Origin: Bacteroidaceae bacterium
Lineage (GTDB): Bacteria; Bacillota_I; Bacilli_A; RFN20; CAG-826
DNA: 64,000 nucleotides
Direction of reading: 5' to 3'
Assembly: GCA_963624045.1 (NCBI GenBank)
Contig: CAVFNI010000006.1
Location: forward strand, 6,166 to 70,165
Part shown: positions 18,221 to 64,000 of the stretch, in pieces
How the letters are laid out: each line of letters opens with the position of its first letter
Numbering within the stretch: the first letter of the stretch is position 1
Translations under genes and position numbers: made by a program
Notes under the pieces: generated by a model
The model's database searches: none
The model's input: the letters and a program-made list of their open reading frames with translations, nothing else
Told to the model about the DNA's origin: nothing

Positions 18221-18246
18221 GGCTCGCCGCGATGCGGGCCTTTTTT
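18221..18246 (+). terminator. Intrinsic terminator after fba.
   Basis: GGCTCGC-cgcgat-GCGGGCC (7-bp stem with a G-U pair) followed by TTTTTTG. Confidence 0.6.
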
Positions 18247-18280
18247 GTCGGCAAAGAAGAACCGCTCGTTTCACTCTTTT

Positions 18281-18321: not shown

Positions 18322-18346
18322 ACATAATTTAAACGGAGGTAATCCA

Positions 18347-19600
18347 ATGGAAAAAGAAAACAAGCATCTAGAATACAAAGAAAACGCAACTAAATCCTAC
18401 CTTAAGACGGTATCGGCCTTCGCAAACTATCATACCGGCAGAATCGTGTTCGGTATCACCGACGATTATCAAATCCTGCCAATCAAAGACCAAAAAGCCT
18501 TCCGTGAAAACCTCGAAAATCAAATAAATGATTCGATCGCCCCCCAACCAGAATATTCTTTATCAAGCAACCAGGATGGCACAATCACCCTTGCGGTCTA
18601 TAAAGGAGAAAACCAACCATATCTATATCATGGTAAGGCCTTTAAAAGGAACGATACAGCAACAATAGAATGCGATGACTTAGAATTAAGAAGACTGATA
18701 CTTCTCGGCAAGAAAATCGACTATGAGACTTTGCCTTATAGCAAAGGGAGCCTTTCTTTTTCGTTCATTGGAACGCAATTAAAAAAGCGAATGGGGTTGG
18801 AAAATTTTTCGTTGGATACCTTAAAAACGCTTGAACTATATAGTGATAAGAGGGGCTATAACAACGCCGCCGCCTTACTTGCCGACACCAATTCCTTTCC
18901 TGGCCTAGATATTGCCGTATTTGGCGACAACGAAAACATTATAAAAGAACGGTATAGCTTCTTCGGGCGCTCATTGGTCGAGCAATATTTTTCCGCGATC
19001 GAAGTTTTCAAAAGATATTATTCGTACGAAGAGATCAGAGGCGCTCTCCGTGAAAAGAAGGTTTTGATTCCGGAAGAAGCTTTTCGTGAAACCATTGCCA
19101 ATTCTTTGATTCACCGCACATATGACGTCAAAGCAAACACCAAAATAGCGATGTATCCTGACCACATTTTGGTTTCCTCACCAGGCGGACTACCAGTCGG
19201 AATCAACAAGGAGCAATACTTAGATGGCGATTTTTCAGTATTAAGAAACCCTATCATCGCCAATGTTTTTCATCGTCTTGGCATCGTGGAAGTCTTTGCA
19301 ACTGGAATAAACCGTATTAAGTCATCATATAAGACAAGCTATTCCAAACCAACATTCATCGTCAAAGACGATTCGATTGGAGTTCTTTTGCCATTAACGA
19401 AAAAAGAAACCGATTTAAGCGAAAACGAACAAAAAATCCTCGATAAAATGAAAAACGCCACCGCATATTCCAGACAAGAGCTTGAAAAAATGTCCTACTT
19501 AAGCAAACCATCGTTAATCAGGGCAATCAACAATCTAATTGATAAAGGAATTGTTTGCAAAATCGGTAAATCTTCCAAAACCGCCTATATTCGAAAATAA
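18347..19600 (+). CDS. Putative transcriptional regulator with an N-terminal Schlafen-like AlbA_2 (divergent AAA_4) domain and a C-terminal HATPase_c_4/HTH domain (COG2865 'RecG-like' regulator).
   Basis: Start at GGAGGT-N6-ATG (MEKENKHLEYKE). The HLEYKE, FANYHTGRIVFG and C-terminal wHTH-like segments are typical of this family. The ORF-track start at 18245 lies inside the leader hairpins. Confidence 0.6.
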   Translation: MEKENKHLEYKENATKSYLKTVSAFANYHTGRIVFGITDDYQILPIKDQKAFRENLENQINDSIAPQPEYSLSSNQDGTITLAVYKGENQPYLYHGKAFKRNDTATIECDDLELRRLILLGKKIDYETLPYSKGSLSFSFIGTQLKKRMGLENFSLDTLKTLELYSDKRGYNNAAALLADTNSFPGLDIAVFGDNENIIKERYSFFGRSLVEQYFSAIEVFKRYYSYEEIRGALREKKVLIPEEAFRETIANSLIHRTYDVKANTKIAMYPDHILVSSPGGLPVGINKEQYLDGDFSVLRNPIIANVFHRLGIVEVFATGINRIKSSYKTSYSKPTFIVKDDSIGVLLPLTKKETDLSENEQKILDKMKNATAYSRQELEKMSYLSKPSLIRAINNLIDKGIVCKIGKSSKTAYIRK

Positions 19601-35943: not shown

Positions 35944-38430
35944 TTATGACACTGGATAAACCTGGGTGAAGGTCATTTGGAAGTTATATAGAGGAATATC
36001 CGGATGAATCGTAACGATGAACGAATCTGGGCCGGTATAACCAGTATAGATTGTGGATTTTCCCGAAAGCACTTTCGCTATTTTATTTTCCTTTTGGCGC
36101 TCGGTGCCATCTTGATTGTACATAGCGTGGTAATTTTTATCGGTGATATCTTCACCATCTCTATTCACGATATTAAATTCAAAGAACTTGCCTTCGGGAA
36201 GGGTAATCTCATAGAAACCATATTGGCCGGTGTTTATGCTTGTGGCGCCAGTTCCCTCACTCGGAGAGAAAGTATAAGTCTTTTCGTCAGCGCTCATAGC
36301 GAAAGTTCCGTGCGTAACCATATATCCGCAACCGCCATCGAGTTCCTCATTGCAATAGCCGGTTTTGTAATACCCATCAAGGTGCGTATGAACGCTCGTT
36401 ACCTTACCCACCAAAGCGGCTTTGCCACTAGAAGCGGCCAAGAAGCTGACGAATTCGTCACCTACTTGCACGGGGTAGGCATTGCCGGGATTAAATTCGA
36501 AGGTGACCTTCCTTTCTTCGCCAGTTGGTATCGATGAAACATGTTTATTGTCACTATCTCTAATTTCGATAATTTCGGCATTATTTACTTGCATTCCTTT
36601 GCCGCTAAGATCACTAAAGCTGTTATTACCAGAGGCATAAGTCATTGAAAGATCGGGGACAAAATAAAGGCGGGGCTTCTCGTAATATTTATATTCGTAG
36701 GTCGAAAGGTTCTTTAATGTCACGTCGAATTGCGGAATGGATTTAGCGCTTTCGGCATCTCCCCATATAGATAAACCGGCGCCTCCATAAACGGAATTAA
36801 ACAATTCTTTTATATCCGAAGAATCTGGGGAAATTAAATAAAGCTTGACGAAATCGTATTCGAATCTTCCTGCTCTATCGATGCTATTGCCGTTATTATC
36901 TTCAATTTTCTCCACTTGCGCCGGCTTTACGATGTGCGAGAAATAAACGGTATCGCCGACGGCCACTTGCCCAGCTTGAATGTAACCTGTCGAAATGACT
37001 TCGGTATATGTGCTGTTTATTTTTGCCGTTTGAACGAGGCGGAATGTCTCGTCGTTAAGAACCTCCAGGGTGAGCGTCATGCCATCCCATTCTTCAGGCT
37101 CCTCGTATGTGTAATTACCATCAGAAAGAAGCAAATGTTCAGATGAGAATTCGTGCGTACCGATCTGCCACATTTCTTTGTCGCCTTGTTGGGCGTCGTC
37201 ATACAAATAGACGTCGTCCCCTGGCAAAACACCATCCTCTTCGGTGAAGCGATAGATGAGGTCGTAATGTCTCTCCAAAGCGCTACGGGTGAATTTCCCA
37301 CTCTTAGCGGAAGAAGGGAGAGTCAAGGTCCTCTTGGTGGAAATCGTATATGTGTCCTTATCCAAAACGAGCTTATAATTCGCGGCGTCATCGCCTGATA
37401 AGGTTATGTTTCCTTTAGAAAGGGAGGCGCTCGCAGTTACGTAGGAATAACCATAATCGACATCAACGTTAATGTCGTCTCCATCAACCGCGCCATATTT
37501 AACCAGAACATCAGTCTTTTCGTCTTTGACGTTAGAAATCGTTTTGGTACTGGTGCCATCATAAACTTTATCGAGGTTTAGCCCCGTGCCCAAAACACGT
37601 TGCTCAATCACGAAAGTCACTTGCATTTCGTTGGCTTTAAAATCCTCGCCCTCAGAGATAGCCGCCTTAATTTTGTATGTGCCGACGTTTTTAGGCGCAT
37701 CGGCGGCCTCATACCAAGCGGAATCTCCCTCTTTTTGATAGGTAACGGTAACGGCGCCATTCTGGCAAGAGAAACTATCCGCGTTGATAAAAGCGCTGAT
37801 CTTTCTGCCATCATAAATGCCTTTCAATTGATCTTGGCTTATTAGCAATGTGATCGGCGAATCCTTCTTTTCGAGCATCGGGATGGTTTCGTTTTTCTCA
37901 TAGGAGCAAGTAAGGCAAGTATAATGTTGCGATCCATTCGCCGTGTATGTAGCTGGCGTATCGACAACTGGCTCCGTCGAGAAATTATGCTCGGCATAAG
38001 AATCCTTTTCGTCGGTATGGGCGCAAGTGGCCTTATGCCAATGATGGGTTTCGTTTTGCTCCCAGTTTTCGGTATCGAAGGTATGAACGTGCTCTATCAC
38101 CGGAAGAACTTCCTCCTTCTTATAAGAGCAGGTCAAACAGGTATAGGTCTTAATGCCCGTCTCGGTCTCGGTAGCGGGTTTCGTTTCCGTCCCCTCGTCG
38201 AAATTGTGTTTGGCTTTCTCGGAGACGTCGGTATGACCGTTTGCGAGGCACTTTTTCCAGTGATATTCCTCATCATACGTGTAGGTATCGCTGTAACTAT
38301 GCTTCACCTCCGAAGACGACGGCGTAGAATCGCTAGAGGCAGAGCCACTATCGGATGATTCCCGATGTCCGCATGCGGAAAGCATACCAAGCATGGCAAG
38401 AGAGGACGCCAAAAGCAGTTTTTTGTTCAT
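35944..38430 (-). CDS. Large surface lipoprotein with two Cys/His-rich repeats, YDG/MBG-like repeats and a C-terminal region of about 450 aa of unknown fold.
   Basis: Start at MNKKLLLASSLAMLGMLSACGH, a canonical lipoprotein signal with lipobox LSAC. The repeats read HxWHKxxCxxxHTD...HNF...TYTCLTCSY.K.E and KVYDGTST. 828 aa from this start. Confidence 0.75.
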   Translation of the reverse strand: MNKKLLLASSLAMLGMLSACGHRESSDSGSASSDSTPSSSEVKHSYSDTYTYDEEYHWKKCLANGHTDVSEKAKHNFDEGTETKPATETETGIKTYTCLTCSYKKEEVLPVIEHVHTFDTENWEQNETHHWHKATCAHTDEKDSYAEHNFSTEPVVDTPATYTANGSQHYTCLTCSYEKNETIPMLEKKDSPITLLISQDQLKGIYDGRKISAFINADSFSCQNGAVTVTYQKEGDSAWYEAADAPKNVGTYKIKAAISEGEDFKANEMQVTFVIEQRVLGTGLNLDKVYDGTSTKTISNVKDEKTDVLVKYGAVDGDDINVDVDYGYSYVTASASLSKGNITLSGDDAANYKLVLDKDTYTISTKRTLTLPSSAKSGKFTRSALERHYDLIYRFTEEDGVLPGDDVYLYDDAQQGDKEMWQIGTHEFSSEHLLLSDGNYTYEEPEEWDGMTLTLEVLNDETFRLVQTAKINSTYTEVISTGYIQAGQVAVGDTVYFSHIVKPAQVEKIEDNNGNSIDRAGRFEYDFVKLYLISPDSSDIKELFNSVYGGAGLSIWGDAESAKSIPQFDVTLKNLSTYEYKYYEKPRLYFVPDLSMTYASGNNSFSDLSGKGMQVNNAEIIEIRDSDNKHVSSIPTGEERKVTFEFNPGNAYPVQVGDEFVSFLAASSGKAALVGKVTSVHTHLDGYYKTGYCNEELDGGCGYMVTHGTFAMSADEKTYTFSPSEGTGATSINTGQYGFYEITLPEGKFFEFNIVNRDGEDITDKNYHAMYNQDGTERQKENKIAKVLSGKSTIYTGYTGPDSFIVTIHPDIPLYNFQMTFTQVYPVS

Positions 38431-38475
38431 GGTAATTATCCATTCCTTTCTAGTAATAGAATACAAGAAAGAACT

Positions 38476-38483
38476 CCCCCCCC
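38476..38483. repeat. C8 (G8 on the coding strand) homopolymeric tract in the lipoprotein promoter/5' region.
   Basis: ctCCCCCCCCgc on the plus strand, about 45 nt upstream of the lipoprotein ATG and adjacent to TTGACT. The surrounding 100 bp are extremely AT-rich. Confidence 0.8.
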
Positions 38484-38584
38484 GCAAGAGTCAAATATAA
38501 AAATTTTTATTTTTACAAATTAATATTTTATCTATTTATTATTGAATTATTTTAATAAATGTAATTGTATTTTAATCTTGTCAA

Positions 38585-40437: not shown

Positions 40438-41124
40438 TCATTTGAGAAGTTCACTAATCGCTAGATATGCGAGCAGCAATCCCGCCGCCGAAGGGACCAT
40501 CATCATCGAAGATGGGGTAAAGCGTCTAATCAACGGCAATTCCTTGGAAGCCACTACCCTAACATCCTTCAATTTGATTCCCTTCTCCCTTAATATCTTC
40601 CGAAGTTTTTTGGCCAAAGGGTCGCCGCTTGTCTTATCGAGGGTCGTTTGATATACGGCGCTAGGATCAAGGCGATTGCCCATCCCCAGTGACACAAAAA
40701 GAGGTTTTCCTGATGATGATGCCGCTTCAATAAGGGCGACTTTGGCCGACAAATCATCCACGGCATCCACCCAAATGTCAGCGTCGAGGAATTCGGGCCG
40801 CTTCAAAGACGAAGAATCGATCTTCAAATTAAGCGTCTTAACTTGGCTATCAGGCCTAATCGAATAAGCGCGACGAAAAGCCACCTCGCTTTTGCTTTTG
40901 CCAATATCTTTATATTCAAAAAGCATCTGTCGGTTCAGATTGCTTTCCTCAACGTTATCGAAATCAACGCCGATAAGCGAAGAAACGCCGCTTCTTAAAA
41001 GGGCTTCATAGCATGTTCCGCCGACGCCGCCTAAACCAAAAACCACCACTTTTCCCGCGCGGATTTTCATTAATCCCTCTTCGCCTAACAATGGCAATAT
41101 CCGTTCATCGATATGAGAAATCAT
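40438..41124 (-). CDS. tcdA: tRNA threonylcarbamoyladenosine dehydratase (ThiF/MoeB-family E1-like).
   Basis: Rossmann motif VFGLGGVGG. Start at AAGGAGG-N6-ATG (MISHIDER), overlapping the miaA 3' end. The ORF track extends to 41256. Confidence 0.8.
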   Translation of the reverse strand: MISHIDERILPLLGEEGLMKIRAGKVVVFGLGGVGGTCYEALLRSGVSSLIGVDFDNVEESNLNRQMLFEYKDIGKSKSEVAFRRAYSIRPDSQVKTLNLKIDSSSLKRPEFLDADIWVDAVDDLSAKVALIEAASSSGKPLFVSLGMGNRLDPSAVYQTTLDKTSGDPLAKKLRKILREKGIKLKDVRVVASKELPLIRRFTPSSMMMVPSAAGLLLAYLAISELLK

Positions 41125-41980
41125 CAACAACCTCCTTAGCGGAATGCACTTCTTTCGTTTGAAACTGGTGACGGAAGAAAGTCTCTTGACGTTTGACGTA
41201 ATGCCTAGTGTCCATGACGATGGCTCGCTTAACCTCATCCAGACCGATGAGCCCATCGCGATAGGGAAAAAATTCTTTGATGCCGATCGCGCTATAAACG
41301 CCCTTGATCGTTTTTACCCCTGCAATCTGCGGCATAACCTCCTTTTCAAGGCCGTCATCAAACATCTTCTCCATCCTTCGTTCAATTCTTTCATACAATT
41401 CTTCGCGATTAGGCGATAACCGATAAAAAGCGGTCGGATAAATCGGGGCGTGCTTTTGTTTGGATAAAAAGGAGGTTTTGCTTTCTCCTAGCGCCAAGCA
41501 GATTTCCAATGACCTTAACACCCGACGGCGGTTCTGGAAAGGGATCTTCTTGGCCTCCAATGGATCTAATTCCTCTAATTTTTGATGCAAGGACAAATCG
41601 TCCATCGTCAAATATGGCGACATATTCACCTTAGAAGTATCGAGAGTCAAATCATAATCGTAAATGGCGCTGCGGATGTATAAACCGCTTCCGCCAACAA
41701 GAATCGGCGTTTTCTTCCTATTTAGGACTTCTTCGATTTTCTTTCTCGCGTCTTTTTGGTAGCGATGTAGGTCATAAGGATCCAAAGAGGAGACAAAGCG
41801 AAAAAGATGATGCGGTACTTTTCTAATCATCGCTTCATCGGGGCACATGGTGGCGATAGGAAAGTCCCGATAGACCTGAAAGGCGTCGGCGTTAATGATT
41901 TCGCCATCAATCTGTGAGGCCACCTCGATTGCCGTCTTACTTTTGCCTGAGGCCGTCGGTCCCATCAAGACCAAAATCAT
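41105..41980 (-). CDS. miaA: tRNA dimethylallyltransferase.
   Basis: P-loop GPTASGKS. 291 aa. Confidence 0.92.
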   Translation of the reverse strand: MILVLMGPTASGKSKTAIEVASQIDGEIINADAFQVYRDFPIATMCPDEAMIRKVPHHLFRFVSSLDPYDLHRYQKDARKKIEEVLNRKKTPILVGGSGLYIRSAIYDYDLTLDTSKVNMSPYLTMDDLSLHQKLEELDPLEAKKIPFQNRRRVLRSLEICLALGESKTSFLSKQKHAPIYPTAFYRLSPNREELYERIERRMEKMFDDGLEKEVMPQIAGVKTIKGVYSAIGIKEFFPYRDGLIGLDEVKRAIVMDTRHYVKRQETFFRHQFQTKEVHSAKEVVDDFSYR

Positions 41981-43713
41981 TTAAGAACCTCAGCAATAGC
42001 TTTTAATTCACTTCCCGCTTCATCTTTAAGCACTTGGTAATTCGCCAAGGCGGGGTGAGAATTGATTTCCTTTTCGAGCGCCAATAACCGCTCCTTAGCC
42101 TCTTGGTGTTTGTCGACATCACCGATTGAAAGAGCCAACTCCTTCTTGGCGGCGGCGTATTTTTCCCCTAATTCCGTAAGGTAAGGATCATTAGAAAGGC
42201 TTTCGCTAAGCTTTTTAAATTGCTTTAGCAAAGGATCAACTCCCATCAAATATGCCACGTCTTTGGCTTTTTCTAGCAAAGGGTCACCTATTAATTCGCC
42301 ATGCAGAGAATATGTCTTCGAGGCGTTTATTTTCACAGGGACAATCGCGCCCTTCAAATATGCTGGCCCATCGAAATGAATCAATTTGCCATTTCGGGCG
42401 TATCCGCTTAGCTTATTGGGGTCTTTTTTGCTTGGTCCCTCAACCAATACGTCGATGGTTTTTCCTAGCATTTCCTCGCTGGATTTAGCCGTTAGGTCAT
42501 CAACGACCGCCTTTAAGCGAAGGAATCTCTCTTTGGTAACTTCCGGATCGACCTGTTTCATTTTGGCGGCCGGAGTCCCTATGCGCGGCGAATAAATAAA
42601 GGTATAAGCGCTAGAATAGCCCACTTCTTTCATCAAACTTAAAGTGTCGGAGAATTCCTCTTCCGTCTCGCCAGGAAAGCCGACGATGATATCCGTAGTC
42701 AAAGCGATATCCGGTATCTTCTTCTTGATGCGGGAGACCAAATCGAGATATTCTTCGCGACTATATCTTCTCCCCATGCGGCGAAGGCAAGATGAGGAAC
42801 CGCTTTGGACGGGGAGATGGAGCCAATGATCGATATTGGGATATTTGGCCATCGCTTCGATCATCTCATCGGTGAATTGGCTGGGATAGGAAGTCAAGAA
42901 CCTTAGGCGTGGCACCCCCAAAGCCGCGACCCTCTCCAACAAGGAAGCAAAGGTTGTGCCATCATGCAAATCAAGCCCATAGCTATTGACGTTTTGTCCT
43001 AATAAGGTGATTTGCTTATATCCCGTTTCGACTAATTCGCGGCATTCTTTCAACACGTCTTCCATTTTGCGGCTTCTTTCCCTGCCGCGCGTATAAGGCA
43101 CGATGCAATAAGTGCAAAATTTATCGCACCCATAGGAGATATTGACATAGGCTTCATAAGAAGATAATCGTAGCGATGGCATCTGTTCAACCACTTCGCT
43201 TGAGAAGGAAGAAGACGAAACCACCGCCCGTTTTTCTTCGATCACTTTGCTTAAGAGCGATGGCAGTTTGTTTATCTCATGGGTTCCGATGATCAAAGAA
43301 ATGAATGGGTAAGTCTTTAGCAAAGATTCGGCCACCCCTTCTTCCCCCATCACGCAGCCAGATAAAACCAACAAAAAGGATGGATTCTTCTCTTTATTGG
43401 CTTTAAATGAGCCGATTTCGCCATAAATCTTCTCTTCGGCGTTTTCGCGCACGGCGCAGGTATTGATGATGGCGATATCCGCCTCTTCAGGTTTATCGGT
43501 ACGAAGGAAGCCCGCTTTCGCAAGATACCCCGCCATCGTCTCCTCGTCCCGATAATTGGCTTGGCAACCGTAGGTGCGGATATAAAATTTCTTCCCTGCG
43601 CCAAAAACACATAAATTCAAAGGGATACGTCCGTCATCGTAAGAACGTTGGACGGGCGGCCTTTGGGCGGCGGTAGTTTTATTTGGTGTTTCCAGAATGA
43701 GCGCCTTTTTCAT
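41977..43713 (-). CDS. miaB: tRNA-2-methylthio-N6-dimethylallyladenosine synthase MiaB with a C-terminal YmcA/YlbF (Com_YlbF, Ric)-like extension.
   Basis: MTTase N domain (YIRTYGCQAN), radical SAM CDKFCTYC, TRAM domain, then an extra helical segment of about 100 aa (...LALEKEINSHPALANYQVLKDEA...) with the YmcA/YlbF pattern. Confidence 0.8.
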   Translation of the reverse strand: MKKALILETPNKTTAAQRPPVQRSYDDGRIPLNLCVFGAGKKFYIRTYGCQANYRDEETMAGYLAKAGFLRTDKPEEADIAIINTCAVRENAEEKIYGEIGSFKANKEKNPSFLLVLSGCVMGEEGVAESLLKTYPFISLIIGTHEINKLPSLLSKVIEEKRAVVSSSSFSSEVVEQMPSLRLSSYEAYVNISYGCDKFCTYCIVPYTRGRERSRKMEDVLKECRELVETGYKQITLLGQNVNSYGLDLHDGTTFASLLERVAALGVPRLRFLTSYPSQFTDEMIEAMAKYPNIDHWLHLPVQSGSSSCLRRMGRRYSREEYLDLVSRIKKKIPDIALTTDIIVGFPGETEEEFSDTLSLMKEVGYSSAYTFIYSPRIGTPAAKMKQVDPEVTKERFLRLKAVVDDLTAKSSEEMLGKTIDVLVEGPSKKDPNKLSGYARNGKLIHFDGPAYLKGAIVPVKINASKTYSLHGELIGDPLLEKAKDVAYLMGVDPLLKQFKKLSESLSNDPYLTELGEKYAAAKKELALSIGDVDKHQEAKERLLALEKEINSHPALANYQVLKDEAGSELKAIAEVLK

Positions 43714-43910
43714 ATTGCTGCCTCCATAACGAAGTTTAATTATTTTTGCGCGCTTACGCGAGAGAAAGAAGCGCGTGACTCAAACAAAGTGTATCGATGT
43801 ATTTGTACTAACTAAAATCGTCCTCGCTTCCCTTGCTAAAGGTCATTAAGGAAAGATGGACCGCGTGGCGGCCCATCATTTTCTTTGCGTTCCTAAAGCG
43901 GGGACGCCCA

Positions 43911-45476
43911 TTATTTAGCAGTCTCCACCGCGCGATATTCGCGAATGACGGATACTTTGATTTGACCAGGATAAGTCATCGTAGTCTCGATTTGCTCGCG
44001 AAGCTGTTGCGCCATCTTAATCGCTTCAACATCGCTTACCTTCTCAGGAATCACCATCACGCGGATTTCGCGGCCCGCTTGCATGGCGTAGGCTTGTTGC
44101 ACGCCCTCATATCCTTTGGCAATCTCCTCAAGCTTGGTGATACGCTTGGTGTAATTCTCCAAAGATTCGCTGCGGGCGCCAGGACGGGCGGCGCTTAAAG
44201 TATCGGCGGCCATCACCAAATGGGCGATCACGCTCTTAGCGGGAACATCGCCATGATGCGATTCAATAGAATTGACGACCACTTCCGGTTCATTGTATTT
44301 ACGAGCTAATTCAGCACCGAGTTGAACGTGGCTGCCTTCTTGTTCAAAATCGACGGCCTTGCCGATGTCATGAAGCAAGCCGGCGCGCTTAGCTAAATTC
44401 TGATCGAGGCCGAGTTCAGCGGCCATGATACCGGTTAGATATGCCGCCTCAATAGAATGCTGCAAGACATTTTGGCCATAGGATGTGCGGTATTTTAAGC
44501 GACCTAAAATGCTAAGAAGCTCGCGGTTAATGTGGGCCAAACCCAAACGGTTGGCGGCATCGATGCCAGCACGCGTACAATCGGCTTGGACGTCGTTACG
44601 GAATTTGTTGGCGACCTCTTCGATACGGCCCGGCTGGATGCGGCCATCCTTAACCAATGCTTCCAGGGTGCGCTTGGCCACTTCGCGGCGAATCGGATCA
44701 AAACAAGAAATCGTGATTACTTCTGGAGTGTCGTCAATCACCAAATCGACCCCCAACGTCGCTTCTAGGACGCGGATGTTACGGCCTTCGCGCCCGATGA
44801 TGCGGCCCTTAAGTTCGTCGGTCGGCAAAGAGATGACGGCCACCGAACGTTCTGTGGTAACCTCTTGGGCGTATTTATCGCAAGCTAAAGACAAAAGGTC
44901 TTTGGCCTTCTCTTCGGCCGTTTGCTCCGCTTCGTCCTCGGCGTTTTTGATATAAGCGGCGATTTCGCTCGACATCTTGTTTTCGACGCGGGCCATGATT
45001 TCGTCGTGAGCTTCCTTGACAGACATTCCACTTACCTTTTCTAGTTCGGCGATGATGCCATCGATTTTCTCGCTCAATTCCTGACTCTTCTTGTCGGTTT
45101 CTTCGATTTTCTTATCGAGCATGTCGTTTTTGGCGTCAAGGGACGTTTCCTTCTTTAATAAGGCGTTGTCCCTTTGATTGATCGCCTCTTCGCGGGCATC
45201 CAATTTGTTTTGCTGCAATTGTGCCTCTTGCTTCATCAAACGAATTTCGTTTTGCGCCTCTTGCTTCATTTCGAAAGCGATTTGCTTGGCGTCTAGTTCG
45301 GCGTTTTTAGTCGTCCGTTCCGCTTTAATTTCCGCGTCACGGATGATTTGCTTAGCCGTCTTTTCGCTCGTTTTAACCTTCGTTCCACCAACTAAATGGA
45401 GGAAGAGGTAGACTAAAGCGCCACCGATAACGAGCGCCACAACGGAGGCAATGAGGATCCAATACCAATTGATCAT
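43911..45476 (-). CDS. rny: Ribonuclease Y.
   Basis: N-terminal TM, coiled coil, KH domain (GREGRNIR), HD domain (HD...). 521 aa. Confidence 0.95.
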   Translation of the reverse strand: MINWYWILIASVVALVIGGALVYLFLHLVGGTKVKTSEKTAKQIIRDAEIKAERTTKNAELDAKQIAFEMKQEAQNEIRLMKQEAQLQQNKLDAREEAINQRDNALLKKETSLDAKNDMLDKKIEETDKKSQELSEKIDGIIAELEKVSGMSVKEAHDEIMARVENKMSSEIAAYIKNAEDEAEQTAEEKAKDLLSLACDKYAQEVTTERSVAVISLPTDELKGRIIGREGRNIRVLEATLGVDLVIDDTPEVITISCFDPIRREVAKRTLEALVKDGRIQPGRIEEVANKFRNDVQADCTRAGIDAANRLGLAHINRELLSILGRLKYRTSYGQNVLQHSIEAAYLTGIMAAELGLDQNLAKRAGLLHDIGKAVDFEQEGSHVQLGAELARKYNEPEVVVNSIESHHGDVPAKSVIAHLVMAADTLSAARPGARSESLENYTKRITKLEEIAKGYEGVQQAYAMQAGREIRVMVIPEKVSDVEAIKMAQQLREQIETTMTYPGQIKVSVIREYRAVETAK

Positions 45477-56725: not shown

Positions 56726-56911
56726 ATGAAAAAAGTCAAGGTCAACGCTGAGGCCTGCATCGGATGCGGCCTTTGCATCGGCAATGCCCCAGACGTCTTC
56801 GCCTTCAGCGATGACGGCAAAAGCGAGGTAATCGGAGAAGTCGCCGACGAAACCGTCGTCGAAGAGACCATCGCCTCTTGCCCAGTTGCCGCAATTGAGT
56901 GGGACGACTAA
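56726..56911 (+). CDS. Small 4Fe-4S ferredoxin.
   Basis: 61 aa, CIGCGLC...C...CP. RBS GGAGGA. Confidence 0.85.
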   Translation: MKKVKVNAEACIGCGLCIGNAPDVFAFSDDGKSEVIGEVADETVVEETIASCPVAAIEWDD

Positions 56912-56923
56912 TTCGAGAAATCA

Positions 56924-56949
56924 AATCGGGCTTCACGGCCCGATTTTTT
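56924..56949. terminator. Bidirectional terminator between the ferredoxin and the RibU-like gene.
   Basis: AATCGGGC-ttcacg-GCCCGATT followed by TTTTTT. Confidence 0.7.
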
Positions 56950-57652
56950 ATTGCCTAACTTCCTCGAAACGCAAGGCTTTATGAAGAGCCTTGTATATAA
57001 AGAAGGTTAAGAACAAAACGGCTCCATCTTTAATGAGATTGAGAGGCAAAACACAATAGAATCCATAGGACCAACCAAGATCGCTAACCGAGGCATTGGC
57101 CATTTGGCACAAAGCTAGCAACTGGCTTTGATCGTAACCCATAACGGCGATATAGAAAGGTAACATCACGTATATATTGAGCAACAAAGCGGCTAAATTT
57201 TGCGTTAATAACGAAACGAGAAAACCAATAAAAACACCTTTGAGGTTTCTTTTCTTGCGATAAATAATCGTGGCCACCACCACAAAAGAAAGGCTAAGAC
57301 AAAAATCCGTCAATTCGCCTACGCCCAGGGTGCTGCTCATCGGAAGCTTAATGAGCGTTTTAACGAGCAAAACGACAACGGCCGTCCAAGGACCATAAGC
57401 ATAGCCGGCCACAAAAGCGGGTATCTCATCAAAGTGAAGAGAAAGAAAAGAAGGAAGGAACGGCAATTTAAGATTAAAGACGGGGACGATATATAAAATC
57501 GTTGATATAGCGCCGAAGATCCCCGCCCGAGCCGCTAATTTTGCATAATTAAACGATGTGTTGCCTCTTTCTTTGAAGAAAACGGCGAAAAGGGCCACCG
57601 AAAAAACGATAAAAGCCGCCAATGAGACGAATTCACGAGATCCTATGGTCAT
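56948..57652 (-). CDS. ribU: ECF-transporter substrate-specific (S) component, riboflavin type (RibU-like).
   Basis: 234 aa, 6 TM. LSLHFDEIPAFVAGYAYGPWTA resembles RibU/YpaA. An FMN riboswitch lies directly upstream. Confidence 0.75.
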   Translation of the reverse strand: MTIGSREFVSLAAFIVFSVALFAVFFKERGNTSFNYAKLAARAGIFGAISTILYIVPVFNLKLPFLPSFLSLHFDEIPAFVAGYAYGPWTAVVVLLVKTLIKLPMSSTLGVGELTDFCLSLSFVVVATIIYRKKRNLKGVFIGFLVSLLTQNLAALLLNIYVMLPFYIAVMGYDQSQLLALCQMANASVSDLGWSYGFYCVLPLNLIKDGAVLFLTFFIYKALHKALRFEEVRQ

Positions 57653-57656
57653 ATAT

Positions 57657-57798
57657 TCCTCCTGCTTCAGGAGGTAAAAGAAACGTTTTGGCCTCTCTTA
57701 TCCGGACTTTACCGTTGGCATCGGAATTGCGCCGATTCATGCTTTCGCTTGCGGGCTATACCGCCAGTCGGCGTATCTAACGCCGCCCTGAAGCGAAC
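57657..57798 (-). ncRNA. FMN riboswitch (RFN element) with an RBS-sequestering helix.
   Basis: Minus strand: CGCUUCAGGGCGG.GUUAGAUACGCCGACUGGCGGUAUAGCCCGCAAGCGAAAG ... GCCAACGGUAAAGUCCGGAUAAGAGAGGC. This matches the conserved RFN halves of the B. subtilis ribD leader (GGGGCAGGGUGAAAUUCCCGACCGGCGGUAGUAAAGC / CCGACAGUGAAAGUCUGGAUGGGAGAAGG). It is followed by ACCUCCUG-aag-CAGGAGG, which pairs with the SD. A TATAAT -10 sits just upstream. Confidence 0.8.
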
Positions 57799-57835
57799 AA
57801 ATTATACGCCAATTGCCAACGCAAAAGAAAAGGAA

Positions 57836-58645
57836 TTAATCGCCGTTGGCAAACCCTTCAAAATATCTCTTAGCTTCTTCTTCGTTAGAAAAGGAAAGAA
57901 CCACGCGATTATTCTCAAGAGTGATTTTCTTCGGTTTGACATTGCCTTTTACAGGGCGCCCCGCCAAAGAACGAACCATCTCTTCGGTAGCGCGCACCGA
58001 TAATTTCTCTTCATGAATCCTTTTTGCCGCCAAGAGAATATCTTCTTGGCTAAGACAAAGCAAAGCGCGTGCGTGCCCAAAGCTCAATTCTCCCGATGAA
58101 ACTTCTTTGATAATCGAATCAGGCAAGGAAAGTAGCCGCATGGTATTTGTCACCTGACTACGTGATTCATGAGATATTCTAGCCAGGATTTGCTGGGAAT
58201 ATTGGAATTTCGTCGATAATGCATTATATATATAAGCCATTTCCAAAATGTTCGATTCGCGTTGATCGCGCGTATCGGCAAGCAGAATCAAAAGCATTTC
58301 TTCGTCCCCCATCGATGAAACGATCGTAGGAACCGTCTCTAGCCCCGCGGCTTTAGCGCCAAAATAACGTTTTCTTCCCAATATCAATTCGTAATGCGAA
58401 CCTTTTTCCCGCACCAAAATGGGGCTGAAAATACCTTTCTCACGAATGGATTTCCCTAACTCGTCCAAGCGATTTTTAGGGAAGTGAACCCTTTTGATAT
58501 AAGCGTTGTCATCGATAAGCGATAATGGCAGATTTTTGCTATTAAGCGATTGATATTCCCTTTCCATCTCGGCGATAACATCGAACTTGGAGAAACGAGA
58601 AACCAATTCCGAAAGTGAGGCTGATCGCTTTTTCTTAGCGTTCAT
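57836..58645 (-). CDS. parB: Chromosome partitioning protein ParB (Spo0J).
   Basis: ParB N-terminal motif GERRxRA-like (ILGRKRYFGAKAAG) and HTH. Confidence 0.85.
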   Translation of the reverse strand: MNAKKKRSASLSELVSRFSKFDVIAEMEREYQSLNSKNLPLSLIDDNAYIKRVHFPKNRLDELGKSIREKGIFSPILVREKGSHYELILGRKRYFGAKAAGLETVPTIVSSMGDEEMLLILLADTRDQRESNILEMAYIYNALSTKFQYSQQILARISHESRSQVTNTMRLLSLPDSIIKEVSSGELSFGHARALLCLSQEDILLAAKRIHEEKLSVRATEEMVRSLAGRPVKGNVKPKKITLENNRVVLSFSNEEEAKRYFEGFANGD

Positions 58646-59405
58646 GGTCGATGATTTCCTTAGCCAAAGACAAATAAGCGATCGCTCCTTGTGAGGAGGG
58701 GCGGAAAGAACAAACGGATAAACCGTGCATCGAAGCTTCGGGAATCGAAATGTTTCTAGGGATTACGACGTCGAAGGTGTTCTCTTTAAAAAGGCCTCGG
58801 ACTTCCCTGGCGATTTCCGTATCCAAAGAATTACGCGCGTCGTACATCGTCAATAAGAACCCTTCGATTTTAAGGGACGGATTGAAGTCGTTTTGAATCC
58901 TGTTGATAGAAGAAAGAATGGCAGCCACCCCTTCCATGGCGAAGAATTCGCATTGAACAGGGATAATAATGGAGGAGGATGCCGCTAAAGCGTTGATGTT
59001 AAGCAAGCCCAAAGAGGGGGGACAATCGATGATGATGTAATCATAATTATCGTCCATTTGCGACAAAACGTTCTTTAGCAAGAAGAAAGGTTTAACGATG
59101 CCTTTATTTTGAATGGCGATATCGAGATTGGCCAATTTTAGGTTGCTTGGCAAAATATCGAGATCCTTTTCTTTCGTCTCTCGCACCGCTAAATCAATCG
59201 ATATGTCCCCTAACAAAACGTCGTAAACGGTCTTGGGCAAGGAGAGAGCGTCGATTCCCAAACCGCGGGAAGCGTTGCCTTGAGAATCGAAATCGATAAG
59301 CAAAACGCGGCGCCCGCTTCGCGCCAAAGCGCTCGAGAGATTGATGGCGGTCGTCGTTTTGCCAACCCCGCCCTTTTGATTGGCGATGGAAATGATTTTG
59401 CTCAT
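58635..59405 (-). CDS. parA: Chromosome partitioning ATPase ParA (Soj).
   Basis: Deviant Walker A KGGVGKTT. 256 aa. Confidence 0.93.
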   Translation of the reverse strand: MSKIISIANQKGGVGKTTTAINLSSALARSGRRVLLIDFDSQGNASRGLGIDALSLPKTVYDVLLGDISIDLAVRETKEKDLDILPSNLKLANLDIAIQNKGIVKPFFLLKNVLSQMDDNYDYIIIDCPPSLGLLNINALAASSSIIIPVQCEFFAMEGVAAILSSINRIQNDFNPSLKIEGFLLTMYDARNSLDTEIAREVRGLFKENTFDVVIPRNISIPEASMHGLSVCSFRPSSQGAIAYLSLAKEIIDHER

Positions 59406-59450
59406 GTGGATTTATGGTATCACTCTTAAGAGCCTATAAAAAGGAAGCTT

Positions 59451-60149
59451 CTACAAAGGCTTTTTAAGAATTTCTGGATACGGCCTAGGGAAACGGTGCG
59501 GCGTCTCTTTTTCCTTTTGAAAAAGGAAGAGGCATCTTTCACCAGCGCCTTCGGGCAATTGATACACCTCTTTTTTTATAAGCTTTAAATTTAAAACGGC
59601 AATAGCCTTCTTAGCGGCGCATAACTCTTCGTCGCCATTGGCGCCTTTCAAAGCCAAGACGTATCCTCCCACGCGTGGCAAGGAGGCGCAGATTTCTAAA
59701 AGGATGGGCAAAGGTGCCACCGCCCTTGCAGTCACGATATCGAAACCGCCGGCTTTCTTAAAATTCTCCACTCGAGAATTAACCACATTAACATTATTAA
59801 GCGATAGTGCGTCTTTGACGTTAGATAAAAAATCGCATTTTTTCTTGGTGGCATCTAATAAAGTAATGTGCGCATCGGGCGAAAAGATAGCAAACGGAAT
59901 GCCGGGAAATCCAGCGCCAGAACCAAAATCTAAAACGTTCTTGTCACCAATTTCGATGCATTTTAAAGGATATAGCGAATCATAAAAATGTTTGATAAGT
60001 ATATCCGATTCCATAGTGATGGAGGTTAGATTGAATTGCCGGTTGCTAGTCAAAATCATCTCTTGATAGAGGCGTAATTTTTCTATCTTCGCCATATCGG
60101 CATTGGGCAAGAATTCTTTTAGCAACGAAAAGAGAGTTTCATAATTCAT
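59451..60149 (-). CDS. rsmG: 16S rRNA (guanine527-N7)-methyltransferase.
   Basis: SAM-binding motif DFGSGAGFPG. Sits immediately downstream of mnmG, the usual mnmG-rsmG arrangement. Confidence 0.9.
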   Translation of the reverse strand: MNYETLFSLLKEFLPNADMAKIEKLRLYQEMILTSNRQFNLTSITMESDILIKHFYDSLYPLKCIEIGDKNVLDFGSGAGFPGIPFAIFSPDAHITLLDATKKKCDFLSNVKDALSLNNVNVVNSRVENFKKAGGFDIVTARAVAPLPILLEICASLPRVGGYVLALKGANGDEELCAAKKAIAVLNLKLIKKEVYQLPEGAGERCLFLFQKEKETPHRFPRPYPEILKKPL

Positions 60150-62029
60150 AATTGCCCCCTCCTTTTTAGGTTCAGCAAAATGATCGCCACATCCGTCGGG
60201 TTGACGCCCGAAATGCGGGCCGCTTGGCCAATCGAAGAAGGGCGAATTTTATCTAACTTCTCCCGCGCCTCCAAACGCAGGCCGTCCATATGCAGGTAAT
60301 CGAAATCGGAAGGCAAGCGTACCTCTTCTCTTTTTTTCTCATCTAAAGCGTCTTTGGTAGCCAAGGCGATATATCCCTCGTACTTGATCACCGTTTCAAG
60401 TGTCAGCTTATCTTGTGCGGACAAAGCAAAAGATGTCAGTTCTGGCATATATTTTTCGATTTTTTCATATTCAACGAAGGGACGTTTCAACAATTCGAAA
60501 GCGTTATGCCCACTCGATATGTCATGATAACCAAGCGACGATAAATATTCGCCAATGCCACTTTTGGGGGAAATATTATGAGTCGAAAGGTATTCTTTGG
60601 CACCTTCGATTCTTTCTTTTCTCCTAAGGAAGCATCGATAACGATTTTCGTCGGCCAAACCGATTTCATGACTCTTTTCGGTCAAACGAAAATCGGCGTT
60701 ATCGTGACGAAGAAGCAAACGATATTCGGCCCTAGAAGAAAGAAGACGGTATGGCTCCTCCGCCCCTTTTGAGACAAGATCATCGATCATGACGCCGATA
60801 TAGGCCTCATCTCTTCTTAAAACAAACGGAGGCAGCCCATCGATATAGCGGGCAGCGTTAATGCCAGCCATGAGGCCTAGCGCAGCGGCCTCCTCATAGC
60901 CGCTAGTACCGCAGATCTGACCGGCCACGTATAGGCCTCTATATGTTTTAATGGCCAACGAAGAATCGAATTGGAAGGAAGCGAGGGCATCATATTCGAT
61001 TTGATAGGCGTCTTTTAGAATCGCCGCCTGTTCTAATCCAGGCAAAGTATGGACAAGCCGAACTTGCATATCATGGTCAAAACCAGTGCTAAATCCTTGT
61101 AAATAGATGGAGTCTCCATCTTCCGTTTCCGGCTCTAAAAAAAGCTGATGCCTTTCCTTATCGGGGAAGCGAAGGATCTTCGACTCAATCGAAGGGCAAT
61201 ACCGCGGCCCGCTCGATTGAATAAGACCATTGGTGACCGCGCTCTCGGGAAGATTTTCGAGAATCAGTTTCTTAGTGTTGTCATTCGTATAAATCAAATA
61301 GCAAGGAAGCTGTTTCTCTAGCGGAGTGAATTCTTTGGTTAGATATGAGAAAGCCAATTCGCCATCCATCCCGTTTTCAACCTTGGCCTTAGAAAAATCG
61401 ATGGTCTTTTTGCTAATACGTGGCGGAGTGCCCGTTTTCAAGCGGAAAAGAGCGATTCCCATCCTCTTTAAAGCGGCGCTTAATCCGATAGCCGAGGCTT
61501 CGCCATCAGGTCCGCCAGGCGTGCACGCATGTCCTTTAAGAATAGAACTTTCCATATAGGTGCCAGTGGTAAGAATGACCGCCTTGGCGCGAATCTCTTC
61601 ATCATTTTGAAGCCTGACGCCATGAACTTCGTTTTCATCGTATAGCAAATCGACAACCATGCCTTCGCGCACTTCGATATCGGAATGGTTGAAAATGATA
61701 TCTTGGACATGCCTAGGATAACCGATTTTATCGACTTGGGCGCGTAGGCACTGGACACCCGGGCCTTTGCGCGTGTTCAAAAACTTTATTTGCAAAGGAT
61801 GATGATCGGAGAGAATCCCCATCATTCCGCCTAAGGCATCGATTTCACGAACCACGATTCCCTTGGCGCTACCTCCGATATGCGGATTGCAAGGCGTATT
61901 GGCAATCATCTTCTTGTTCAAGGTCAATAAAAGAACCTTTTTGTGAAGATGAGACAAAGCGAAAGCGCTCTCTACTCCAGCGTGTCCTCCACCGACTACT
62001 ATCGCATCAAAATCGTAATTTCCCTGCAT
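60146..62029 (-). CDS. mnmG: tRNA uridine 5-carboxymethylaminomethyl modification enzyme MnmG (GidA).
   Basis: FAD motif VVGGGHAG. 627 aa. Confidence 0.95.
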   Translation of the reverse strand: MQGNYDFDAIVVGGGHAGVESAFALSHLHKKVLLLTLNKKMIANTPCNPHIGGSAKGIVVREIDALGGMMGILSDHHPLQIKFLNTRKGPGVQCLRAQVDKIGYPRHVQDIIFNHSDIEVREGMVVDLLYDENEVHGVRLQNDEEIRAKAVILTTGTYMESSILKGHACTPGGPDGEASAIGLSAALKRMGIALFRLKTGTPPRISKKTIDFSKAKVENGMDGELAFSYLTKEFTPLEKQLPCYLIYTNDNTKKLILENLPESAVTNGLIQSSGPRYCPSIESKILRFPDKERHQLFLEPETEDGDSIYLQGFSTGFDHDMQVRLVHTLPGLEQAAILKDAYQIEYDALASFQFDSSLAIKTYRGLYVAGQICGTSGYEEAAALGLMAGINAARYIDGLPPFVLRRDEAYIGVMIDDLVSKGAEEPYRLLSSRAEYRLLLRHDNADFRLTEKSHEIGLADENRYRCFLRRKERIEGAKEYLSTHNISPKSGIGEYLSSLGYHDISSGHNAFELLKRPFVEYEKIEKYMPELTSFALSAQDKLTLETVIKYEGYIALATKDALDEKKREEVRLPSDFDYLHMDGLRLEAREKLDKIRPSSIGQAARISGVNPTDVAIILLNLKRRGQL

Positions 62030-62033
62030 TTCC

Positions 62034-63443
62034 TTATCCGATTGAATTAGACATGTCGAGTTTTATCAAGCGATTTAATTCAATCGCGTATTCCATCGGC
62101 AATTCTTTGGCGAATGGTTCGATGAAACCCATGATGATGGAATTAGTAGCTTCTTCCTCGCTTAAACCGCGCGACATTAAATAAAATAATTGCTCCTCAT
62201 TTATCTTCGAGACGGTGGCTTCGTGCTCGATGAAGCTGCTGGCGTTATGAATTTCGTTTTTCGGATAGGTGTCGCTTTTGGACTTATCGTCGATGATAAG
62301 GGTATCGCATTCGACGTGCGAGTGGGCGTTTTCGGCGCCAGGAAGCATCCGCACCGTCCCGCGGTAATTGGCCACACCGCCATGTTTGCAAATCGATTTC
62401 GAGATGATATTGGAGGAAGTGTCTTTCCCCATATGGATCATTCTTGCACCATTATCTTGAAATTGATTATAACCGCCGACGGCGATCGAAATGACCGAGC
62501 CTTTGGCGCGCTCGCCTTTTAAGATACAAGCAGGGTATTTCATGTTCCTCATCGAACCGATGTTCCCGTCCACCCATTCCATCAAGGCATCATCTTCCAC
62601 CACCGCTCTTTGCGTGACTAAATTAACGATGTTACCCGACCAATTCTGCACAGTTGTATAACGGCATTTCGCCCGTGGTAAGACAATGATTTCCACCACC
62701 GCGGCATGCAAAGATTCTTTGCTATATATCGGAGCCGTGCACCCCTCGACATAATTGATCGAAGAATCTTCATCACAAATGATCAAAGAACGTTCGAATT
62801 GTCCGCTTTTTTCGTTGTTGATGCGGAAATAAGATTGCAAAGGCTTCTCAAGATGAACACCTTTAGGCACGTAAATGAAGGAACCGCCGCTCCAAACAGC
62901 GCCATTAAGGGCAGCGAATTTATTGTCGGTAAAAGGCACGACTGAACCGAAATATTTCCTGAATAGGTCGGGGAATAATTTGAGTCCCATGTCGGTCGAT
63001 AAGAAAATAACGCCTTTCTTTTCCACCTCTTCGAGCATGTTGTGGTAAACCACTTCTGATTCGTACTGCGTAGTAACTCCGGAAAGAAATTTCTGCTCGG
63101 CTTCGGGAATGCCGAGTTTGCTAAAGGTCTCTTTGACGGCATGAGGCACCTCGTCCCAGGATTGCGCCTCCGTTTGGGCCACTTTCGTATAATAGGTATA
63201 ACTATCAAAATCCAAAAACGAGAGATCGGGTCCATAAGAAGGCAAAGGCATCTTCAAAAAAGCCCGCAAAGCCTTCAAGCGATATTCGAGCATCCAATCT
63301 GGCTCCCCTTTTATCTTGGAAATTTCCCGGACGACCTGCTCATTAAGCCCTTTGCCGGTGCTATACAAACTTTTCTGATCGGTTTTAAAGTCGTACTTGT
63401 AATCGTCATTCAGAAAAGAGACGTCGCTATCGTTAATGCTCAT
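62034..63443 (-). CDS. sufB: Fe-S cluster assembly protein SufB.
   Basis: SufB/SufD beta-helix C-terminal region. Start at [11 protein letters not shown]. The ORF track begins 12 codons upstream. Confidence 0.9.
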
Positions 63444-63885
63444 GGCTCTCCTCCTTAAGCAATAATTCGCGCATGGCATCCCAACCCATCGTGGCGCAAT
63501 GAACCCTGGCGGCTTGCTTGCCGGTGTTTATAAAAACGATAGCTTCGTCAAGCACAGTTTCGTCGAATGGTTTCTCGGAAATCATCAAGAGATATTGTTC
63601 GATCAAATACAAGCCTTCTTTGGCGTCCATGCCAATAAGGCGATCGCACATGATATCCGTTGAAGCGCTGGAGATAGTACAAGCGACGCCTTCCCATCTA
63701 GCATCGACGACTTTGTCGTTTTGATATTTCAAATAGACGTCGAAAGAATCGATGCAATTAACGCTGTCGGTATGGACGGAAATATATTCGCTCCCATTGG
63801 TAGGCTTACCTTTATGACGAGGCGAAGAATAATGGTCCATAATGATTTCACGCATGATTTGCGGGGTTATTTCAAAAATAGGCAT
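63433..63885 (-). CDS. sufU: SUF-system Fe-S assembly scaffold SufU (NifU/IscU-like).
   Basis: 150 aa with three conserved Cys (NCID, GVACT, VHCA). Confidence 0.85.
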
Positions 63886-64000
63886 CGAGGAATTCCTTTC
63901 CGTGCTTCACAGCATCAACCAATTCATCAATCTCTTCATAGGTGGTATAAAAATAGAAACTCGCGCGGACAGTCGCTGGCGTCCCTAAAAAATCGGTGAG
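63872..64000 (-). CDS. sufS: Cysteine desulfurase SufS, C-terminal end. The gene continues beyond the window.
   Basis: Reverse-complement translation ...[33 protein letters not shown] matches a typical SufS C-terminus. Its stop overlaps the sufU start. Confidence 0.7.
   Translation of the reverse strand, partial: LTDFLGTPATVRASFYFYTTYEEIDELVDAVKHGKEFLDAYF

Follow-up and report, generated by a model that had tools for sequence, protein, structure and literature searches.

In tRNA, MiaA makes i6A37 and MiaB turns it into ms2i6A37; MiaB requires two [4Fe-4S] clusters, of which the auxiliary one is thought to supply the sulfur. RicA (YmcA) of Bacillus subtilis is a protein of 143 aa, and the ricF and ricT genes of this bacterium are unlinked to ricA. 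The genes of the two protein families are adjacent in the B. subtilis ymcB (miaB)-ymcA (ricA) operon, which is documented with ymcA immediately downstream of ymcB (PMC2952846), and the conserved synteny and the translational coupling of the pair have been on record since 2010. B. subtilis RicA works within an Fe-S-bearing complex, RicAFT, in which its residue C141 at the C terminus ligates [4Fe-4S] cluster 2 (PMC6751060). It dimerises, or pairs with RicF, via helices a1, a2 and a5.

The locus analysed here encodes the two families as a single protein. The miaB-ricA gene pair is known, while its natural fused form is new; a search for a published description of a MiaB-RicA fusion found none. 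The window referred to below is the whole 64-kb stretch of DNA analysed.

The fused gene and its MiaB portion

The preliminary description of this locus had proposed a complete MiaB methylthiotransferase extended by a RicA-like Com_YlbF domain within one 578-aa ORF. The ORF was confirmed as single and intact, with the following organisation:

41977..43713, minus strand: MiaB::RicA fusion gene, a single 578-aa ORF with the stop codon at 41977-41979 (ORF list)
43285..43590, minus strand: MTTase N-terminal domain (UPF0004), residues 42-143 (PF00919, E 5.5e-26), with C50, C86 and C120 as the auxiliary-cluster cysteines
42634..43146, minus strand: radical-SAM core, residues 190-360 (PF04055, E 1.9e-30), with the motif C196xxxC200xxC203
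42289..42474, minus strand: TRAM RNA-binding domain, residues 414-475 (PF01938, E 5.9e-9)
41980..42282, minus strand: five-helix Com_YlbF domain of RicA (YmcA) type, residues 478-578, with the invariant D477-P478 at its start

PF00919, PF04055 and PF01938 constitute, in this order, the three-domain architecture of MiaB, and the completeness of the enzyme is borne out by the TIGR01574 equivalog, which scores 499.9 bits against a cut-off of 355.3 and aligns residues 42-475 with profile positions 1-437 of 437. The six cysteines C50, C86, C120, C196, C200 and C203 are all present and are invariant among 52 homologues, and the predicted model superposes on the MiaB structures 7mjz/7mjv with a TMt of 0.87. 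Judged by its sequence, the MiaB half belongs to the tRNA (i6A37-C2)-methylthiotransferase family and is predicted to form ms2i6A37.

An identical protein is called on the NCBI contig CAVECA010000003.1 of GCA_963614415.1, and JGI, ENA, Logan and NCBI assemblies, independent of one another, all have it as a single ORF. Among related loci, gathered with the junction-spanning alignment A3, the fusion recurs in uncultured Bacilli of the gut and rumen, where 68 species-level genomes carry it and identity falls as low as 49%; in 65 of them the ORF is intact (577-598 aa), and in the remaining three it runs off the contig. The 50%-identity representative library, in which other MiaB cluster members presumably stand for the full-length fused proteins, listed none of them and was unsuited to counting fusions. 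A return to split genes was seen in none of the 68 species, and the dN/dS of the tail is about 0.06-0.12, which indicates purifying selection. The fusion is thus genuine, lineage-wide and selectively maintained. That miaB and ricA are really two genes separated by a stop or a frameshift, and joined here by an artefact of sequencing, assembly or gene calling, has a negligible probability and is already refuted by the cross-genome conservation; the 89-aa stand-alone protein (P0121, 98% identical to the tail) called in one NCBI assembly, which would favour such a split, is due to a 73-N scaffold gap within the gene and was rejected as a natural 'stand-alone RicA'.

NCBI taxonomy places Candidatus Alloenteromonas only under 'Bacillota incertae sedis'; this and kindred genera presumably belong to the GTDB order RFN20. 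A paper on the orders RFN20, RF39 and ML615J-28 makes no mention of yaaT, ylbF or ymcA in its text or supplement.

Family, fold and origin of the C-terminal domain

The linker between the last TRAM strand and the tail domain is only about three residues long. Scanned alone, the tail matches PF06133 (Com_YlbF) with 25.9-26.4 bits against a gathering threshold of 23.9, and the same family is matched by 32 of 40 related tails and by 85 of the 87 extended-family members of the profile; the whole-protein scan gives a borderline 21.5 bits. With the Pfam Com_YlbF score just below the threshold in the full-length context, standard annotation names the protein 'MiaB' only. Structural comparison of the C-terminal extension, which the preliminary description had suggested, reveals the five-helix Com_YlbF fold of the YmcA and RicF crystal structures, with the YheA-like structures 2iaz and 2oeq placed lower.

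The sequence link of the window's tail alone to RicA is weak and intermediates are needed: a phmmer search of the PDB with the tail as the only query sequence recovered no RicA, profiles being required, and a tails-only profile gave E-values of 0.03 for RicA and 0.33 for RicF. Profile A4, which comprises the tails plus their free-standing relatives, scores B. subtilis RicA at 40.6 bits (E 2.4e-9) and RicF at 19.4 bits (E 0.0088), and the initial RicA-like assignment is upheld as RicA-type rather than RicF-type. By position as well as by sequence, the tail is orthologous to RicA (YmcA) of B. subtilis. A generic helical extension, or a RicF/YheA-type Com_YlbF paralogue, is hardly credible in view of the 21-bit lead of RicA over RicF with the wider profile, the near-complete Com_YlbF membership of the profile, the lower rank of the YheA-like structures and the free-standing homologues that hold the exact place of ymcA after miaB.

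The nearest relatives of the tail are short free-standing RicA homologues of about 104 aa (E 1e-14 to 1e-7 against the tail profile), a family (P0127, P0133 and about 85 others) that surfaced in the 50%-identity representative library. A word-indexed homologue search gave one fragment for the tail and, for P0127, only that protein itself. In length these homologues equal the fused tail, with which they share the motifs KK in helix a3 and HPLxxNY before a5; they likewise end after helix 5, and a cysteine occurs among the final 15 residues in only 4 of 86, whereas their N-terminal 15 residues are less like the DPLxxKAKD junction helix of the fusion. In unfused relatives (loci L070-L072, from low-GC spore-formers) a Com_YlbF gene of 104-105 aa directly follows miaB, overlaps the miaB stop by 8-17 nt in a different reading frame and lies in the gene order ymdB-spoVS-miaB-ricA-cotE-mutS-mutL. 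This overlapping pair bears out the earlier suggestion that two neighbouring genes had fused. Ancestrally, miaB and ricA of Bacilli lie side by side, translationally coupled and overlapping in different frames; a small frame-changing event at the overlap would have merged them, probably once, and the fusion then became fixed in a clade of Bacilli, uncultured and living in gut and rumen.

The fusion protein terminates directly behind helix 5. Among 117 fused tails, none carries a cysteine within the last 15 residues, and the alignment has no conserved cysteine column. Compared with B. subtilis RicA, the fused version is cut to the helical core of about 100 aa out of 143 aa and has lost the Cys141-type tail. 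Since it is without the C-terminal cysteine tail, the fused RicA cannot give the cluster 2 ligand to the Ric Fe-S centre. The tail thus defines a short, cysteine-less RicA subtype, which can have no part in the shared Fe-S cluster on which the current RicAFT model centres.

Gene neighbourhood

The genes and sites adjoining the fusion in the window are:

41105..41980, minus strand: miaA, the i6A37 dimethylallyltransferase gene (TIGR00174, 226.6 bits against a cut-off of 148.65)
43911..45476, minus strand: rny (RNase Y; TIGR03319, 651.4 bits), immediately upstream of the fusion
43855..43877, minus strand: terminator-like hairpin in the rny/fusion interval, from a consensus scan (10-bp stem, 7 G-C pairs, T-rich tail; pattern match only)

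The source of the MiaB substrate is encoded next to the fusion, the miaA ATG overlapping the fusion TGA as ATGA (junction sequence CTTAAATGATTTTGG), and miaA lies directly 3' of the fusion in 68/68 related loci. With this overlap, translation of the fusion is coupled to that of the enzyme acting one step earlier in the pathway. A ThiF-family gene after miaA was considered as TcdA; all its scores fell below the cut-offs and, with the failure of this assignment, a three-gene A37-modification operon was dropped.

On the other side, rny was correctly identified at the outset as the next gene upstream, and it precedes the fusion in each related locus that reaches far enough upstream. The total of terminator-like sites in the region, to which the hairpin between the two genes belongs, is not above that of shuffled sequence.

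A search of all ORFs with the tail profiles found no second Com_YlbF gene in the window or in 76 loci, and a tblastn search of the same window and loci gave no match for a PSP1/RicT gene; its query was a B. subtilis YaaT sequence, which Pfam identifies as PSP1 (126.6 bits). RicF/RicT-type genes were found neither in the 64-kb window nor, in the 68 genomes, at a distance of up to 10 kb from the fusion, a result of little weight as these genes are unlinked to ricA in B. subtilis. The physical coupling of a radical-SAM tRNA modifier to a Ric-like module, as originally put forward, stands in the sense of one polypeptide; a coupling to a Ric complex is only a possibility.

Probable roles of the fused protein and comparison with known systems

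The fusion of the two families into one conserved protein suggests that MiaB and RicA work together. A natural fusion that selection has kept across a whole lineage, with a linker of three residues, represents classic 'Rosetta-stone' evidence for joint physical action, and the protein is probably a bifunctional MiaB-RicA, selectively maintained, in which the tail serves as an interaction module in a physical and functional partnership. By analogy with B. subtilis RicA, the tail would be a protein-protein interaction module placed beside the tRNA-binding TRAM domain, where it may either dimerise MiaB or dock MiaB onto a RicF/RicT-type partner; such docking could provide a link to the RNase Y machinery, whose gene adjoins the fusion. 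The fusion would then record a partnership of MiaB and RicA that, in species with separate genes, takes a non-covalent form. It makes these questions testable in model organisms, in terms of MiaB-RicA binding in B. subtilis or S. aureus, the dependence of ms2i6A on ricA, and Ric phenotypes in relation to tRNA modification.

The best surviving alternative, though an unlikely one, is a neutral fusion of convenience, in which both halves keep their independent jobs (MiaB on tRNA, RicA in the RicAFT/RNase Y complex) and the link provides 1:1 co-expression only. The overlap of 8-17 nt in the relatives makes a fusion mutationally cheap, and biofilm formation in B. subtilis reportedly needs ymcA but can do without ymcB (an unpublished remark), so that in this organism the two proteins do not depend on each other in every function. 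The accessible portion of a B. subtilis in-cell cross-linking/co-fractionation data set, moreover, lists YLBF_YMCA, and no MIAB_YMCA pair was found in that portion. Against this reading, the linker of about three residues with its invariant Asp-Pro keeps helix a1, which forms part of the interface of the RicA dimer, directly against TRAM, and so tight an attachment to an enzyme of 54 kDa would be likely to interfere with an unrelated complex; the fusion has also been kept across the 68 species, despite divergence down to 49% identity, without reversion, the sole apparent split being the scaffold gap.

A broader and somewhat more doubtful proposal is that the ancestral and general job of RicA was that of a MiaB partner, in dimerising, in tRNA positioning or in renewal of the sacrificial Fe-S cluster. 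The RNase Y 'Y-complex' role in B. subtilis would have come later, RicF and RicT would be absent from the reduced-genome gut clade, and cysteine-less RicA would survive there only as a MiaB subunit. If true, this would tie the Ric proteins to tRNA modification and account for the long-noted, unexplained miaB-ricA synteny.

Improbable is the reading that the RicA module serves the Fe-S chemistry of MiaB, for example by bringing in a cluster carrier, or the SUF machinery, so that the auxiliary [4Fe-4S] can be rebuilt, with RicF and RicT absent or irrelevant in the clade. The Fe-S-bearing complex of RicA in B. subtilis, the two [4Fe-4S] clusters needed by MiaB, the conservation of all six cysteines and the position of the fusion in a tRNA-A37 modification operon with miaA in the clade all accord with it; the tail, however, shows neither a conserved cysteine nor any other evident metal ligand, it has no link here to any Fe-S carrier, and the idea is a speculation from context.

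The bifunctional protein with the tail as an interaction module, which is the preferred reading, may be set against three described systems. Residues 1-475 are similar to the MiaB of Bacteroides uniformis (PDB 7MJV-7MJZ) over about 450 columns with 40% identity (TMt 0.87), but the solved MiaB structures and typical MiaB proteins stop at TRAM, whereas the fusion has an additional helical domain of 100 aa. The ymcB-ymcA pair of B. subtilis, present in S. aureus as well, comprises the same two families in the same order and in similar surroundings, with rny-ymdB followed by miaB and ricA in most relatives; it consists of two coupled genes, in contrast to the one polypeptide with a linker of roughly three residues seen here, and the fusion is directly followed by miaA and not by cotE-mutS-mutL. 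With the RicA of the RicAFT (YmcA-YlbF-YaaT) 'Y-complex', the specificity factor of RNase Y (PDB 2PIH, 6PRH, 6PRK), the tail shares the five-helix fold, the match to the RicA profile and an adjoining rny gene, while it differs in being without the C-terminal cluster-2 ligand and in having its N-terminus joined to an enzyme beside helix a1.

Organisation and distribution of the fusion gene

The fusion gene is a single unbroken ORF of 578 aa (window 41977-43713, minus strand) with an ATG start preceded by GGAGG. The preliminary description had claimed a complete MiaB followed by a helical Com_YlbF/YmcA-type segment, and the first part of this claim was upheld. Three MiaB domains were identified using Pfam, TIGR01574 (the NCBIfam MiaB equivalog) spans residues 42-475 end to end with a score of 499.9 bits (cut-off 355), and the six cluster cysteines (C50, C86, C120, C196, C200 and C203) are all present and invariant across 52 homologues. 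A full-length AlphaFold model based on the alignment of the 52 homologues (pLDDT 87.8, pTM 0.84) superposes on Bacteroides uniformis MiaB 7mjz/7mjv (E ~1e-42, TMt 0.87, ~450 aligned columns, 40% identity). The MiaB part is, on these grounds, complete and canonical.

Pfam domains of the fusion protein and the gap upstream of its gene
Residues 42-143: UPF0004 (MTTase-N)
Residues 190-360: Radical_SAM
Residues 414-475: TRAM
Residues 480-575: Com_YlbF
Window 43714-43910: gap between rny and the fusion gene; ymdB missing, terminator-like hairpin 3' of rny present (pattern match only)

Among the 120 best homologues (62-100% identity), almost every one has the tail and a length of 571-592 aa; truncated calls account for the few that are shorter (e.g. 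the 516-aa homologue P0100). An exact copy of the window protein is found on NCBI contig CAVECA010000003.1 (GCA_963614415.1). A scan of related loci, with one genome per GTDB species, identified 68 fusion loci at 49% to 92% identity to the window protein. No frameshift or stop parts two genes in the window or in 65 of these loci, which hold a single ORF of 577-598 aa; the gene is cut by a contig end in the remaining three. The sole apparent split, an 89-aa stand-alone 'Com_YlbF' call (P0121), was rejected as a natural one, since a 73-N scaffold gap replaces ~267 nt of the fusion gene at that locus (L077 2674-2748; GCA_963643195.1, CAVIKP010000128.1). Against this background, an artefact of sequencing, assembly or gene calling has a negligible probability. 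The junction, (Y/F)S(L/M)xGxLxxDP, is constant throughout, the most divergent branches included, and this constancy speaks for one fusion event. The tail evolves faster than the MiaB body, yet is clearly constrained (dN/dS 0.06-0.12 versus 0.014-0.05, from pairs with unsaturated synonymous sites).

The carriers are, without exception, metagenome-assembled genomes of uncultured gut or rumen bacteria, labelled as Bacilli, Bacillales, Erysipelotrichaceae or Mollicutes bacterium, Candidatus Enteromonas or Alloenteromonas. Several carrier records have plainly wrong species names; the batch 'H07xxx-L1_cleanbin' / 'G02630-L1_cleanbin' holds misnamed records (loci L014, L021, L023, L028, L032, L049 and others) titled Escherichia coli, Alistipes shahii, Bacteroides uniformis, Faecalibacterium prausnitzii, Roseburia hominis etc. 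These loci are of the Bacilli-type recA-rny-miaB::ricA-miaA and the organism names look wrong.

Identity and origin of the tail

The Com_YlbF score is borderline in a whole-protein scan (21.5 bits, under the gathering score of 23.9 bits), and most database copies therefore bear labels for the three MiaB domains and no others; a precomputed PF06133 tag is present in only 7 of the closest 120 homologues. The PF06133 search with the tail alone gave 25.9-26.4 bits (E ~1e-5; positions 2-98 of the 105-position model), and 32 of 40 diverse homologue tails matched the family singly (best 2.4e-9). AlphaFold models the tail with confidence (pLDDT 93.4) as five helices, the number also seen in the RicA crystal structure (PMC6751060). 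The Com_YlbF assignment is thus solid, as the preliminary description had proposed.

The tail alignment, searched as a profile against 1.84 billion representative proteins, matched mostly free-standing proteins of 100-110 aa (E 1e-14 to 1e-5). A profile of the window tail and 86 such relatives matched B. subtilis RicA over its full length (E 2.4e-9, 40.6 bits) in preference to RicF (E 0.0088, 19.4 bits), and Com_YlbF was matched by the tail itself and by 85 of the 86 relatives, so that a tail other than RicA is scarcely conceivable. The link obtained with a tails-only profile is weak (RicA 0.03 vs RicF 0.33) and a single-sequence search with the tail returned no match; the RicA assignment therefore depends on the intermediates and on synteny.

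The genomic position was examined for two free-standing relatives (P0127 and P0133). Their genes lie directly 3' of a miaB encoding 480-484 aa, in the B. subtilis-like order ymdB-spoVS-miaB-ricA-cotE-mutS-mutL, and each begins in another reading frame before miaB has ended, the overlap of start codon and miaB stop being 8 and 17 nt, respectively (e.g. ...TTAATTAATGAATAATAAT...). In B. subtilis, ymcB-ymcA is a bicistronic pair (PMC2952846), described in the literature as translationally coupled and conserved in synteny, and S. aureus has miaB-ricA in the same arrangement. The tail, a Com_YlbF family member and positional orthologue of RicA, is thus the ymcA/ricA gene, probably merged into miaB when a small event changed the frame where the two genes overlap; the suggested fusion of neighbouring genes is borne out.

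Genomic context

The miaA gene is directly 3' of the fusion in all 68 loci and rny is 5' of it in every locus reaching far enough (six are cut by a contig end), both identities being backed by equivalog models. The fusion TGA overlaps the miaA ATG in the window (ATGA, 41977-41980), and the two genes abut, 0-3 nt apart, in most of the 68 genomes. In most related genomes (L003-L069) ymdB (~260 aa) occupies a gap of ~790-920 nt between rny and the fusion; it is lost in the lineage of the window (window, L001, L002) and in L052/L054, leaving only 65-210 nt, and rny is indeed the next upstream gene here. With miaA directly after the fusion and rny before it, the RicA module lies within an operon for the two consecutive steps of ms2i6A37 synthesis, adjoining the RNase Y gene. 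No gene for RicF or RicT was found in the 64-kb window or, in the 68 genomes, at a distance of up to 10 kb from the fusion. The two genes are unlinked in B. subtilis.

A ThiF-family gene (40438-41124) follows miaA with a 20-nt overlap; its scores for TcdA, ThiF and MoeB are all under the respective cut-offs and support assignment to none of the three. A predicted lipoprotein of 847 aa (35944-38487, minus strand; signal peptide ending in ...LSACGH) matches no Pfam family convincingly, the MBG_3 match being weak. It carries a duplicated Cys/His-rich motif (...H.F....T.PAT.T..G...YTCLTCSY...) and is conserved in the sister assembly, whose gene call has a length of 828 aa. In the stretch formed by window 56900-64000 and the next 10 kb (L075), the genes mnmG-rsmG-parA-parB, typical of regions near the origin, are immediately preceded on their upstream side by sufC-sufD-sufS-sufU-sufB, the SUF operon for Fe-S assembly. 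The cumulative GC skew falls monotonically over the whole window, which places it on one replichore. Two adjacent short ORFs of 141 and 94 aa (9451-9876 and 10066-10350, minus strand) both match the EamA transporter family and may be a single EamA/DMT transporter gene that has been broken in two. Unrelated to the fusion are a 792-aa protein with DUF6693/DUF898 repeats (14760-17138, plus strand) and a Schlafen AlbA_2 + HATPase_c_4 protein (18245-19600, plus strand) by a class II fructose-bisphosphate aldolase gene.

Probable function and comparison with B. subtilis RicA

The fusion is, as read from its sequence, a bifunctional polypeptide with an intact catalytic MiaB and a RicA-type helical domain. 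The linker in the full-length model, between the last strand of the tRNA-binding TRAM domain (470-474) and the helix from 478, is of ~3 residues, with D477-P478 invariant at the start of the RicA-type domain. RicA dimerises or pairs with RicF via helices a1, a2 and a5, while the a3-a4 flaps stay free (PMC6751060), and by analogy the tail is most likely a protein-interaction module, through which MiaB would form a dimer or attach to a RicF/RicT-type partner. We favour reading the fusion as the record of a physical partnership between MiaB and RicA, one that would also hold for proteins encoded by separate genes. That the fusion is neutral and its two proteins act independently has an appreciable, clearly smaller probability, and a role of the tail in Fe-S supply is improbable.

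Full-text literature searches on YmcA/RicA together with MiaB/YmcB gave the synteny and the translational coupling and no account of a fusion, and the passages available of a B. subtilis cross-linking data set list YLBF_YMCA and no MIAB_YMCA pair. The MiaB::RicA architecture is visible in public data, some copies carrying the PF06133 tag, yet the sources name the copies just 'MiaB'. The fusion is real and lineage-wide, and provides useful Rosetta-stone evidence on a modest, long-standing open question.

Fe-S cluster 2 of the B. subtilis RicAFT complex is ligated by RicT C167, RicF C134 and C146, and RicA C141, the last at the very C terminus and with strong phenotypes in the C141S mutant (PMC6751060). 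The fused domain stops as soon as helix 5 ends. In all 117 fused tails the final 15 residues are free of cysteine, and no cysteine column is conserved; the same stretch includes a cysteine in only 4 of 86 short free-standing relatives. Thus, whereas B. subtilis RicA contributes a C-terminal ligand, the fused module, ending as it does without such a cysteine, cannot donate that ligand to cluster 2 and so lacks one defining functional feature of its B. subtilis counterpart.
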